Assembly (NCBI GenBank): GCA_963699255.1
Contig: OY969425.1
Coordinates: 1,650,001 to 1,682,000 of the forward strand
Direction: 5' to 3'
DNA length: 32,000 bases
DNA from: an uncultured bacterium
GTDB taxonomy: Bacteria; Margulisbacteria; WOR-1; CAVSGV01
In this document: positions 12,802-26,705 of the stretch, in pieces
How positions within the stretch are numbered: the first letter of the stretch is position 1
How the letters are laid out: each line of letters opens with the position of its first letter
Position numbers and translations under genes: made by a program
The notes under the pieces: model-generated
Databases searched by the model: none
What the model was told of the DNA's origin: nothing
What the model saw: only the letters and a program-made list of their open reading frames with translations

Positions 12802-13086
12802 TTGAATTATACTAAAAGCTTGGTAAGCATAATAATCCCCTGCTGGAACGCGCGTGATTATATTAAGAAATGTTTCAACTCCGTGAAAGCGCAGAGCTAT
12901 GCGAGCATCGAGGTTATCGTTGTAGATAACGGCTCAACCGACGATTCAAAGAAATTGGTCCGCCGTTTTGCTAACGGCCTCAAGATTCTCCATTATCGAG
13001 AATCCGGTAAATTACGGCTTTGCCAGGGCGATGAACCAGGGCATTGCGGCTTCAAAAGGCGAATTCGTTTTCACCCTCAATCTTGA
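12802..13086 (+). CDS. GT2 glycosyltransferase, N-terminal segment (frame interrupted near 12985-12991)
   Basis: TTG 12802 lies 6 nt after AAGGTGG. LVSIIIPCWNARDYIKKCFNSVKAQSYASIEVIVVDNGSTDDSKKLV is a canonical GT2 N-terminus. After ..FANGLKI the frame yields non-homologous residues and stops at 13084-13086. Confidence 0.8.
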   Translation: MNYTKSLVSIIIPCWNARDYIKKCFNSVKAQSYASIEVIVVDNGSTDDSKKLVRRFANGLKILHYRESGKLRLCQGDEPGHCGFKRRIRFHPQS

Positions 13087-13945
13087 CGTCGAGCTTGAAC
13101 CCGATCATATCGAAAAGCTTGTAAAAGCATTTCAAGATCCTAACATCGGATCCGCCACAGGCAAGCTCTACAGGCCTCCGGAATACTTCAAAGGCAAAAA
13201 GATCATTGACACGACCGGCCATATTCTTCTGGCTAACAGGGGGATCAACAGCAGGGGAGAGCTTGAGGAAGATTTGGGCCAGTATGATGACAAAACGGAT
13301 ATCTTCGGCGTGTGCGCGGCGGCGGGGATGTACAGGCGAGAAATGCTGGATGACGTGAAGGTCGCGGGCGAATATTTCGATGAGGACTATTTCGCTTCGT
13401 TCGAGGATACCGACCTTGACTGGAGGGCGGTTCTGCGGGGATGGAAGAGCGTCTATGTGCCGTCCGCCGTCGGATATCACAAAAGAAAAGCATTTGACTG
13501 GAATTATACCGATGAGATGGTATCCAATTCCAAGCGGAACAAGTTCCTGACCGCGATCAAGAACGACTCTATTATCAATTATATCATCGATCTTCCTGTC
13601 ATCCTTTCGTATGAGATCGAGAATATACTTTACAAGCACTTTAAGAACTACCGTTTGTTTTTCCTGGGCTATTATAAGATGCTGAAGGGACTGCCTTCGG
13701 CGCTGAAAAAAAGAGCGCTCTTTATCGGCCGGAGCAAAATATCGCCGCTCTCCTTCAGGAAGCATATATTTTATGAAAAGGATGATATCTTGAAGATCCG
13801 CGATCTGATCGCCCTTGCGGCCCTCATCCTGTTCCTGACCTGGTTGATCGGAGGACGGAACACGTTCTTTCTGGCTTTATTCATCTTTCTTATCTTCAAT
13901 CCGGCGGTGTATTACATCAAAGGCAGGCCGGATACGGAGGACTAA
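12968..13945 (+). CDS. GT2 glycosyltransferase, C-terminal segment (+1 frame relative to 12802 segment)
   Basis: GT2 homology resumes in the +1 frame at (S)IIENPVNYGFARAMNQGIAASKGEFVFTLNLDVEL (DxD-like), then FEDTDLDWRAVLRGWKSVYVPSAVGYH, with a C-terminal TM segment. The TTG at 12968 is an ORF-finder start without an SD. Together with 12802-12987 it forms one ~380-aa GT2. Confidence 0.8.
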   Translation: MLTASRFSIIENPVNYGFARAMNQGIAASKGEFVFTLNLDVELEPDHIEKLVKAFQDPNIGSATGKLYRPPEYFKGKKIIDTTGHILLANRGINSRGELEEDLGQYDDKTDIFGVCAAAGMYRREMLDDVKVAGEYFDEDYFASFEDTDLDWRAVLRGWKSVYVPSAVGYHKRKAFDWNYTDEMVSNSKRNKFLTAIKNDSIINYIIDLPVILSYEIENILYKHFKNYRLFFLGYYKMLKGLPSALKKRALFIGRSKISPLSFRKHIFYEKDDILKIRDLIALAALILFLTWLIGGRNTFFLALFIFLIFNPAVYYIKGRPDTED

Positions 13946-13998
13946 TCCCCCCAACCCCCTTTATTAAAGGGGGTGCGAGCAAAGCGAGCGGGGGATTA
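13943..13998. terminator. Nested GC-rich hairpins between convergent genes (putative bidirectional terminator)
   Basis: Outer stem TAATCCCCC (13943-13951) pairs with GGGGGATTA (13990-13998). Inner hairpin ACCCCCT-ttattaa-AGGGGGT spans 13954-13974. A direct repeat GCGAGC-aaa-GCGAGC is also present. There is no clear U-tract on either strand, so intrinsic-terminator status is uncertain. Confidence 0.5.
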
Positions 13999-24400: not shown

Positions 24401-24706
24401 TACGGTGCAGCGAATACGCTTCAGGAGCTTCTCACGGTCAAATCCGATGATGTTGCCGGACGCGCCCGTGTCTATGAAGAGATCATAAAAGGAAAGCTGA
24501 TGGGAAAACCCGGCGTACCGGAATCGTTCAAGGTCCTGATAAAAGAACTCAGGAGCCTTGCGCTGGACCTCAAGACGCTGAACAAAGAAGGCAAAGAAGT
24601 GAACATAGACGAAGAAATATTCGAGAAGCCGAGCATTTTCGGCCGTTCGCCTGCCGGCTCGATTCGCGAATCGGGCAAGAGAGAAAGAAGCGGTTATGCA
24701 ACTTAA
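21407..24706 (+). CDS. rpoB: DNA-directed RNA polymerase subunit beta
   Basis: 1099 aa. [33 protein letters not shown] (Rif region), GRHGNKGIV, and [32 protein letters not shown]. The ATG overlaps the rplL TGA (ATGA). Confidence 0.97.
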
Positions 24707-26705
24707 GAAAAAAGAAACAAGGGAATTTGAATCATTAAAGATCGGGTTAGCTTCGACCGAGAGGATCCTTTCATGGTCTTACGGAGAGGTTGAGAAGCCC
24801 GAAACCATCAACTACAGGACATTTAAGCCTGAGAGAAAAGGTCTTTTCTGCGAAAAGATCTTCGGACCTGTTAAGGATTGGGAGTGTCACTGCGGAAAAT
24901 ACAGAAGGATCAGGTACAGGGGGATCGTGTGCGAGAGATGCGGGGTTGAGGTCACCACTTCAAGGGTAAGGCGAGAGCGCATGGGACACATTAAACTTGC
25001 CGTACCCATTTCCCATGTCTGGTTCCTGCGCGGAATACCCGGGTTCATCGGCATTATGCTCGATACTTCCACAAAGCTGATCGAAGAGGTCATTTATTAC
25101 GATGCTTATATGGTCACCGAAGTTTCGCGGGAGGGTAAAGAAAAGATAAAACTGAAGGAAGGGCAGGTCCTCAGGGAAAGCGAATATCAGGAAGCAAAGG
25201 AAAAATACGGCAGCGCTTTCAAGGCGGAAACGGGTGCAAGAGCGGTCAGGGAGGTGCTGTCCAAGATTGATCTGCAGGCGACGGTTACCAAACTCAGAAG
25301 GGAAGTAAAAACTTCTGAAGGGCAAAAAAGGATCAAGATCGTAAAACGCTTGAGGGTCGTGGAGGGATTCTTTAAATCCGGGAACAAGCCGGAATGGATG
25401 ATACTGGAAGTCCTGCCTGTCATGCCGCCGGACCTGCGTCCGATGGTCCAGCTTGAGGGCGGAAGATTCGCGACCTCGGACCTGAACGATCTTTACAGGC
25501 GCATCTTGAACAGGAACAACAGGCTGAAGAAAATAATAAGCATGGGCGCTCCTGATATGATAGTAAGGAACGAAAAAAGGATGCTTCAGGAAGCTGTCGA
25601 CGTTCTGATAGATAATGGAAGAAGGAAAAGGGCGGTCACGGGATCAACGGGACGTCCGCTGAAATCCCTTTCCGATATCATAGAAGGAAAACAGGGAAGG
25701 TTCAGGCAGAATCTGCTCGGGAAGCGCGCTGACTATTCAGGAAGGTCCGTTATTGTTGTCGGGCCGACGCTTAAGATACATCAATGCGGGCTTCCGAAGG
25801 AAATGGCGCTTGAATTATTCAAACCGTTCGTTATAAGGAAGCTCGTTGAACGCGGTCTTTCTCAGAACGTAAAAAGCGCCAAGAGGCACATAGACAAGAG
25901 AGAGATATTCGTTTGGGATATTCTTGAAGAAGTGATCAAGGGGCATCCGGTCCTCTTGAACCGAGCGCCTACACTGCACAGGCTTGGCATACAGGCTTTT
26001 GAGCCGATCCTTGTCGAAGGGAAGGCCATACAGATCCATCCTCTGGTGTGTCCGGCATTTAACGCTGACTTTGACGGAGACCAGATGGCCGTGCATGTGC
26101 CGCTTCTCACGGAATCGCGGGTTGAAGCAAGACTCCTCATGCTTTCTTCAAGGAACATTCTCTCTCCCGCATCGGGCAGGCCGATCATCACACCTACACA
26201 GGACATGGTCCTGGGGGTCTATTTCATGACCGTTGATGATGAAAGGGTAGCACTGGGCAAGGGAATGAATTTCTCCTCCGACAATGAAGCAATGATCGCT
26301 CAGGATCTGGATCAAATTCATCTGCACGCGCTGATAAATGTCAGGAGGGACGGCCAGATGATCCAGACGACGGTCGGCCGCATCAAATTCAACAATACGC
26401 TTTCAAAAGTCCTGGCAAAAAGGGTTGCTGGGGAAAAGCTTGAATATATAAATTATACTGTTGATAAAAAGAAACTTGAGGCTCTTATCCTGTTCTTCTA
26501 CAAGAAATACGGGTCCGAGATAACCGCGGAAATGGCTGACGAGATAAAACGACTCGGATTTAAATATGCAACGATCGCCGGAATAACTATCGCTATAGAC
26601 GACCTGAAAGTCCCGTCGCAAAAAAAGCATATAGTTCAAAAGGCGACCAGGCAGGTAGAATCGCTTGATAAGCAGCTTAAGGCCGGGCAGATTCTCCAAG
26701 AATGA
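24696..26705 (+). CDS. rpoC: DNA-directed RNA polymerase subunit beta-prime, N-terminal segment (frame interrupted near 26691-26697)
   Basis: Zn finger [23 protein letters not shown] and catalytic [17 protein letters not shown]. 11-nt overlap with rpoB. Homology runs to ..[10 protein letters not shown], and this frame then stops 3 codons later (TGA 26703-26705). Confidence 0.95.

Follow-up and report, generated by a model that had tools for sequence, protein, structure and literature searches.

A change from frame 0 to frame +1 within a gene is known from prfB-type ribosomal frameshifting, and a beta' subunit made as two polypeptides is known from cyanobacteria, in which rpoC, an essential gene, is naturally split into rpoC1 and rpoC2. 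In quasi-palindrome mutation, a template-switching polymerase adds a base complementary to the bulged base of the other arm and so makes an imperfect repeat perfect; Ripley, and Lovett and co-workers, described such mutations as hotspots in E. coli. Systematic consensus errors occur in long-read (Nanopore) assemblies of bacteria and metagenomes, and for those linked to methylation, published reports describe mainly base substitutions (A to G, C to T), not insertions. On polymerase-based platforms, non-B motifs are reported to show raised rates of insertion errors (PMC10519405).

The window analyzed here, a stretch of 32,000 nucleotides, comes from a Margulisiibacteriota/Saganbacteria-like bacterium, and every gene in it is unbroken except two. 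The first of these encodes a GT2 family glycosyltransferase (12802-13945, + strand) and is present in the deposited sequence as two open reading frames, 12757-13086 and 12968-13945, between which the Pfam Glycos_transf_2 match is split (profile positions 1-58 in the first and 54-166 in the second). The second is rpoC, encoding RNA polymerase beta' (24696-28881, + strand), deposited as open reading frames 24696-26705 and 26665-28881, the former of which contains Rpb1 domains 1-3 and the latter domains 4-5. As the +1 frame of rpoC is open only from 26659 and the frame-0 stop codon TGA lies at 26703-26705, the shift in this gene must fall within 47 nt.

An exact search of the window found the 10-mer AGATTCTCCA at 12983-12992 within the glycosyltransferase gene and at 26689-26698 within rpoC, both on the + strand, and nowhere else, as the earlier note had claimed. 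The expected count was ~0.10, and two or more copies were seen in 0 of 100 shuffles. At both copies the frame changes from 0 to +1, and the 10-mer begins at codon base 2 (xAG ATT CTC CAx) in each gene, since (12983-12757) mod 3 and (26689-24696) mod 3 both equal 1. The open reading frame coordinates and the Pfam domain split thus uphold the claim that the two genes pass to the +1 frame at this 10-mer in the same phase. The frame-0 stop is reached two codons after CTC in rpoC and 31 codons downstream of the shift site in the glycosyltransferase gene. Outside the 10-mer the two sites differ, with ~5 of 13 upstream flank positions matching on direct reading, and neither has a run of one base longer than TT, and hence no homopolymer. 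Transcriptional slippage or RNA-level correction was rejected as a candidate on the same grounds, there being no long run of A or T.

For comparison, three contigs assembled independently from the public run ERR10755942 covered 17,504 nt of the window. Over this length the window differs from the contigs by one substitution and its two extra T residues, and one contig has a 2-nt deletion. Logan contig L002 aligns to window positions 2174-14221 (12,047 nt) with 0 mismatches and a single 1-nt gap, located at the glycosyltransferase site, and Logan contig L001, free of mismatches over 26072-29820, has GGGCAGATCTCCAAGAATGAG at the rpoC site. At both sites the contigs therefore read AGATCTCCA, one T fewer than the window, the spurious base being either T at 12986/12987 in the first copy and either T at 26692/26693 in the second. 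With one T removed, the glycosyltransferase is intact at 380 aa, and the corresponding L002 product gives a single unbroken Glycos_transf_2 match (profile 1-166, E 4e-36). In the same way, rpoC encodes 1394 aa and is continuous across the junction, through Rpb1 domains 3-4-5. The repaired junction aligns without gaps to solved beta' chains, the best solved-structure matches of the product being cyanobacterial beta'. The comparison contigs are not themselves free of error, as the 2-nt deletion is a feature of L001 and breaks rpoC at window position 26272. All three indel differences touch TCTCC, where positions in or next to this motif make up 0.6% of those compared on the + strand and 1.8% on either strand, with two independent contexts represented; a TCTCC/GGAGA-linked effect may thus play a part.

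Relatives agree with the contigs. Two glycosyltransferase cluster-mates from other sources (at least 90% identity) are intact at 396 and 426 aa and contain ..GLKISIIENP.., the reading without the T, and the relatives P0026 and P0027 read ..NGLKISIIENPANYGF.. in this protein. The RpoC cluster-mates P0019 and P0020 (at least 90% identity) are likewise intact, at 1394 aa, with ..GQISKNEHF.., again the T-less reading. In a further 58 Margulisiibacteriota-like relatives, rpoC is uninterrupted at the site, where the residues are [I/L]-[S/T/A] encoded by many different codons. The closest relative (L084, 91%) has CAG ATC TCC there, and 11 of the 12 closest have rpoC in a single frame. Records of the broken products (669, 738 and 325 aa) trace to one contig only, of 1,770,855 bp, whose length and uncultured lineage suggest a long-read metagenome assembly. 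Because the independent assembly and all relatives have intact genes, a consensus error specific to the sequence context is almost certainly the source of the extra T at both sites, with no recoding in either gene.

Under this explanation, each AGATCTCCA of the true genome would have gained a single spurious T in the source consensus and become AGATTCTCCA. The 9-mer would stand in the same codon phase in both genes, encoding Gln/Lys-Ile-Ser (xAG ATC TCC A), and a shared 9-mer in a shared phase, together with the added T, would give both genes an apparent switch into the +1 frame on one and the same 10-mer. Base-calling or consensus polishing probably introduced the T, which would then be absent from the DNA. 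As the window holds 0 unaltered copies of AGATCTCC on either strand, the extra T is found at two of two true copies of AGATCTCCA in the 32 kb examined. The true 9-mer contains GATC and the palindrome AGATCT. As these two motifs are correct at most of their sites in the window, the error seems to need a longer context of at least eight bases, AGATCTCC. AGATCTC at 14000, for instance, is correct when compared with the independent contig. Two further sites outside the contig coverage, GATCTCC at 16207 and AGATCTC at 30295, fall within unbroken open reading frames. Across the rpoB/rpoC loci of relatives (1.05 Mb) there are 0 copies of AGATTCTCCA and eight of AGATCTCCA, too few for an in-phase test.

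A sequencing or polishing error had been the first candidate of the earlier note, coupled to GANTC-type methylation. The error itself is borne out by the independent copy with one T fewer and intact genes, but the motif is not of the GANTC type: GATTC arises at the two sites only from the extra T, so that the error itself makes the motif, and of the 33 GATTC copies in the window the other 31 stand in normal sequence. Copies in unbroken sequence do exist as the earlier note had said, although the one it placed at 15934 starts at 15933. Methylation at GATC or AGATCT was also rejected as a sufficient cause, and simple motif methylation in general falls short, because 230 GATC and six AGATCT sites are unaffected. 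Base modification at the GATC/AGATCT core may nonetheless be a contributor, as may ambiguous C/T calls resolved by the polisher as "TC". The complementary arm close by may also have an effect, because each added T completes a small inverted repeat.

Insertions of one base, comparable to those in the window, occur three times in the rpoC of a sister genome, L026, an assembly known to be Nanopore-only and produced with Flye and one round of Medaka (PMC12313526). Nanopore-only assemblies therefore do yield such breaks in essential genes. Two of these three independent insertions complete perfect repeats (of 5 and 6 bp). A polisher that kept both alleles of a C/T polymorphism or pseudopolymorphism at a third codon position (ATC/ATT becoming ATTC) would fit all five insertions, here and in L026.

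The repeats themselves were as the earlier note had described them in calling both sites self-complementary, with stems of 7 bp and 5 bp, although these stems are weak. At the glycosyltransferase site the inverted repeat GATTCTC-cattatc-GAGAATC (12984-13004, + strand) has 7-bp arms and a 7-nt loop, and at the rpoC site ATTCT-cca-AGAAT (26691-26703, + strand) has 5-bp arms and a 3-nt loop, its 3' end running into the frame-0 stop TGA at 26703-26705. Both are perfect only through the extra T, which pairs with the other arm; without it, the glycosyltransferase site retains a 6-bp stem with a bulged A. Predicted folding energies with and without the T are -4.2 and -0.9 kcal/mol at the glycosyltransferase site and -3.1 and 0 kcal/mol at the rpoC site. 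Even with the T, an equal or better fold was reached by 17 of 200 shuffles for the former (z-score -1.7) and by 38 of 200 for the latter (z-score -0.9). A pure k-mer error leaves the perfecting of a repeat at both sites unexplained.

These repeats give some room to a hairpin-templated origin of the T, in which a template-switching polymerase copied it from the bulged A of the other arm. This would have happened in vitro, during library repair, amplification or polymerase-based sequencing, or else in a sub-population of the cells, with the assembler then taking up the variant. We consider this unlikely, but it would account for one pattern: the T turns GAT-CTC..GAGAATC into a 7-bp repeat and AT-CT cca AGAAT into a 5-bp one. 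The chance that an insertion perfects a repeat is ~7% per site for arms of at least 5 bp and ~0.6% for arms of at least 7 bp, giving a joint chance of ~8e-4 in what is a post hoc test. Across the window and L026, four of five insertions complete perfect repeats compared with a baseline of 7-10%, again post hoc and with n=5. The raised insertion errors at non-B motifs on polymerase-based platforms point the same way. Against this, a hairpin origin does not explain the nine bases common to both events, only four to six of which lie in the arms, and the stems available in the true sequence are very weak, at the -0.9 and 0 kcal/mol given above. Many similar imperfect repeats must exist in the window, yet no other gene is broken, and no other extra base occurs in the comparable 17.5 kb. 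In addition, the consensus should not adopt an artefact that only a minority of molecules carry, and the test concerns five events and followed the noticing of the hairpins. The related proposal that a hairpin had targeted mutagenesis in the cell, made in the earlier note, is not supported, because rpoC is essential and an intact allele with identical flanks exists; a fixed quasi-palindrome event in the cell is implausible for the same reasons. The repeat-perfecting pattern may instead bear on how a consensus artefact arises.

Very improbable is a population that truly carries the T in both genes, through recent pseudogenization or a tolerated two-polypeptide beta', with the ERR10755942 contigs representing a co-occurring intact strain. 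The deposited consensus does have the T at both sites, cyanobacterial rpoC is naturally split ~90 residues upstream of the break in the window, and TTG at 26665 could in principle serve as a restart for the C-terminal part. However, rpoC is essential, and its break interrupts a conserved stretch away from the cyanobacterial boundary. The gene is unsplit at this site in 58 of 58 relatives, in addition to its single frame in all but one of the 12 closest, and an intact allele with identical flanks exists. Two independent insertions at one 9-mer, with only one other difference in 17.5 kb, would moreover presuppose a site-specific mutator, and nothing points to one.

We give almost no credence to a programmed use of AGAUUCUCCA as a +1 ribosomal frameshift or RNA-level correction site for rpoC and the glycosyltransferase gene, with the T real at both sites, an unknown efficient +1 shift or RNA-level correction acting on A-UUC-UCC-A (itself scarcely credible), and the T-less contigs coming from a co-occurring strain: the same 10-mer and codon phase in two unrelated genes, the stop two codons downstream in rpoC and the small hairpins overlapping both sites would fit, but the site is not conserved, being without the T in the closest relatives and in an otherwise identical assembly, no common stimulatory element exists beyond the 10-mer, the frame-0 stop of the glycosyltransferase gene is 31 codons away, and the hairpins are weak and exist only through the T. 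The shared +1 recoding signal suggested in the earlier note is contradicted on two of the three grounds that the note itself had named, by contigs from another read set with one base fewer at both sites and by relatives whose uninterrupted genes have a different sequence at these positions.

With both genes intact and no biological recoding, the practical value of the consensus-error reading is as a quality flag for the deposited genome, in which every AGATCTCCA has probably received the same insertion of one base; further genes in it are therefore likely to be miscalled as pseudogenes, and re-polishing is advised. The case also illustrates a trap, in that the same motif at several frameshifts in a genome assembled from long-read metagenomes should suggest systematic error first and recoding second. 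For work on long-read error modes, the inserted bases that perfect repeats offer a small lead, and consensus pipelines for long reads may be prone to a little-described kind of error in which the added base perfects a small inverted repeat.

Set beside the described systems, the rpoC break resembles cyanobacterial rpoC1/rpoC2 in that beta' would be made as two polypeptides, in a lineage that is sister to the cyanobacteria. It differs in lying within a conserved stretch, ~90 residues downstream of the point at which the cyanobacterial gene is split, in open reading frames that overlap in different frames, and in the uninterrupted genes of relatives from the lineage. With prfB-type frameshifting, the two genes share a change from frame 0 to +1 inside the gene and, in rpoC, a nearby frame-0 stop. 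Unlike prfB, they have no CUU UGA-like shift codon beside a stop and no common upstream Shine-Dalgarno-like stimulator, the site is not conserved in orthologues, and the extra base is absent from the independent assembly. Programmed +1 frameshifting was rejected as a candidate because the interruption is neither conserved in orthologues nor matched by the independent contigs, and no stop or slow codon directly follows the shift codon. As in quasi-palindrome template-switching, a base complementary to the bulged base of the other arm is added and the repeat becomes perfect, but the arms here are 5-7 bp and barely stable, and the 9-mer common to both events extends past them. Methylation-linked Nanopore errors are mostly substitutions, unlike the insertion seen here with its need for a longer context; the core of the k-mer is nevertheless a classic methylation target, GATC/AGATCT. 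With the systematic consensus errors of long-read (Nanopore) sequencing, the window shares an error repeated at an identical k-mer, a conflict with an independent read set and apparent frameshifts in essential genes.

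The 10-mer AGATTCTCCA lies at both frame breaks of the window, with one copy at 12983-12992 and one at 26689-26698, both on the + strand, and a search of both strands found no further copy in the window. As about 0.10 copies would be expected and none of 100 shuffles contained two, the 10-mer common to both breaks is not a chance event. In the ORF map, the family-2 glycosyltransferase (GT2) is present on the + strand in two pieces (12757-13086 and 12968-13945), as is rpoC (24696-26705 and 26665-28881). By Pfam, the first part of GT2 matches Glycos_transf_2 positions 1-58 and the second part positions 54-166, and Rpb1 domains 1-3 and 4-5 fall on the first and second rpoC pieces, respectively. 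Both genes pass from frame 0 to +1 with the 10-mer beginning at the second codon base, confirming the shared motif and shared codon phase described in the earlier note. As the +1 frame of rpoC opens no earlier than 26659, with TGA 26703-26705 closing frame 0, the frame change must occur within 47 nt.

Exact-sequence look-ups of neighbouring proteins retrieved three contigs (L001, L002 and L083), assembled independently (Logan) from public run ERR10755942. They jointly span 17,504 nt of the window, and their ends lie in strongly conserved parts of rpoC and fusA, as is to be expected when a complex metagenome is assembled from a de Bruijn graph. L002 matches window positions 2174-14221 with no mismatches and one 1-nt gap, reading CTCAAGATCTCCATTATC at the GT2 site where the window reads CTCAAGATTCTCCATTATC. 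L001 matches 26072-29820 with no mismatches, reading GGGCAGATCTCCAAGAATGAG at the rpoC site where the window reads GGGCAGATTCTCCAAGAATGAG. GT2 in L002 is a single gene of 380 aa that Pfam matches without a break (profile 1-166, E 4e-36), and rpoC in L001 carries domains 3, 4 and 5 in a single frame across the junction. Each “frameshift site” is therefore one extra T within a true 9-mer, AGATCTCCA. The comparison contigs are themselves imperfect; a 2-nt loss of TC in L001 at window 26272-26273 (TTTCTCCTCC) breaks rpoC there, where the window is intact, and L083 has A where the window has C at 19579, a synonymous third-position difference in an Ile codon (ATC/ATA) of rplK, inside GAGATC, and the sole substitution over 17.5 kb. 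Each of the three indels that separate the window from these contigs touches TCTCC.

The host is a Margulisiibacteriota/Saganbacteria-like bacterium, and its broken products (RpoC, 669 and 738 aa; GT2, 325 aa) are on record in the protein collection from one contig only (1,770,855 bp; NCBI and ENA). In the 90%-identity clusters to which these products belong, the remaining members have intact RpoC (1394 aa, junction ..K[S/G]..) and GT2 (396 and 426 aa, reading ..NGLKISIIENPANYGF..), and deleting one T from the window yields exactly these cluster-mates' products. At the nucleotide level, rpoC is uninterrupted at the break position in 28/28 genome and 30/30 metagenome loci, which encode [I/L]-[S/T/A] there through ATC, ATA, ATT, CTT, CTC, TTG and other codons, with CAG ATC TCC in the closest relative (91%). 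The deposited sequence does contain the pattern, but almost certainly as the product of a systematic consensus error and not of biology. The sequencing or polishing error listed among the earlier note's candidates is thus supported by Logan contigs and relatives that lack the extra T and have intact genes, and we regard an artefact as very probable.

The 1.77-Mb contig of an uncultured lineage points to a long-read metagenome assembly as the source. Unaltered AGATCTCC is absent from both strands of the window, and therefore both true copies were altered. No error is apparent at shorter sub-contexts: L002 reproduces exactly the stretch with AGATCTC at 14000, AGATCTC at 30295 and GATCTCC at 16207 belong to unbroken ORFs beyond the stretches compared, and AGATCT (6 copies) and GATC (230 copies) occur in otherwise normal sequence. 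The error would thus be a deterministic one of base-calling or polishing, needing ~8-9 bases of context around a GATC/AGATCT core, with the extra T placed directly before C. Methylation commonly targets GATC/AGATCT, and modified bases could plausibly contribute, as could ambiguous C/T calls that were resolved as “TC”. As the methylation-linked Nanopore errors described in the literature consulted are substitutions, we only infer such a contribution to the extra T. The window has 230 GATC sites, about twice the 119 expected from base composition; AGATCT, with 6 copies (8 if the two true copies are counted), is close to the 9 expected.

The local hairpin noted earlier at each site does exist, though weakly, at -4.2 (GT2) and -3.1 (rpoC) kcal/mol, with 17/200 and 38/200 shuffles folding at least as well. 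The extra T turns an imperfect GAT-CTC..GAGAATC into a perfect 7 bp repeat in GT2 and an imperfect AT-CT cca AGAAT into a perfect 5 bp repeat in rpoC, a pattern that resembles quasi-palindrome template switching. When the 10-mer is placed at random, arms of at least 5 arise in 7.2% and of at least 7 in 0.6% of cases, a joint chance of ~8e-4 in a test made after the hairpins had been noticed. A useful control for single-base breaks of rpoC in a Nanopore-only assembly is the sister genome L026 (MFD03726.bin.2.164), assembled with Flye and a single Medaka round (PMC12313526). Within 340 nt, its rpoC (CAVYHE010000010.1, L026:2560-2910) is interrupted by three separate insertions of one base each (CTG[T]CTG, CTT[A]TCA and TCT[G]CTT); the gene is in one continuous frame in 11 other close relatives, one of which (L006) is a further MAG from that series. 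The third insertion is at Phe-Ser-Ser codons homologous to the site of TC loss in L001. Two of the three complete perfect 5- and 6-bp repeats, bringing repeat-completing insertions to 4/5 against a 7-10% baseline, a post hoc count of five events. Non-B motifs are reported to raise insertion errors mainly on polymerase-based platforms, with only a slight increase on Nanopore (PMC10519405). Because template switching leaves the common 9-mer unexplained, the true sequences without T barely fold (-0.9 for GT2 and 0 for rpoC kcal/mol), and the test was post hoc with five events, we keep it as a possible secondary factor.

A real mutation, set beside independent contigs without the T, is highly improbable. 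The proposed +1 recoding signal is scarcely credible, with T-less contigs and varied codons in uninterrupted relatives both found, observations that the earlier note had itself named as counting against it, and with no conserved shift site at the rpoC position in the 28 genome and 30 metagenome loci, no stimulator common to the two sites beyond the 10-mer, and no homopolymer run for slippage at either.

Outside the two sites, G+C is ~35% over window 1-6000 and 44-51% over most of the remainder. A cluster of glycan-synthesis genes (UDP-galactopyranose mutase-like, GT2, radical SAM, methyltransferase, amine oxidase, GT2, DUF2304) starts with this low-G+C end, a possible horizontal acquisition. 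A single tRNA-Trp(CCA) at 18260-18336 lies upstream of nusG (18619-19254), matching the usual secE-nusG-rplKAJL-rpoBC arrangement, and the window showed no unusual tRNA able to decode a four-base codon.

The value of these observations is in flagging the assembly for re-polishing, and in the warning that several frameshifts sharing an identical motif in a long-read MAG are a mark of systematic error. The repaired rpoC junction aligns gap-free with solved beta' structures, the best matches of the junction region being cyanobacterial beta' (rpoC2), from ~residue 50. Cyanobacteria have a naturally split rpoC, and the break in the window falls ~90 residues downstream of their split point; unlike cyanobacteria, this lineage has an unsplit rpoC.
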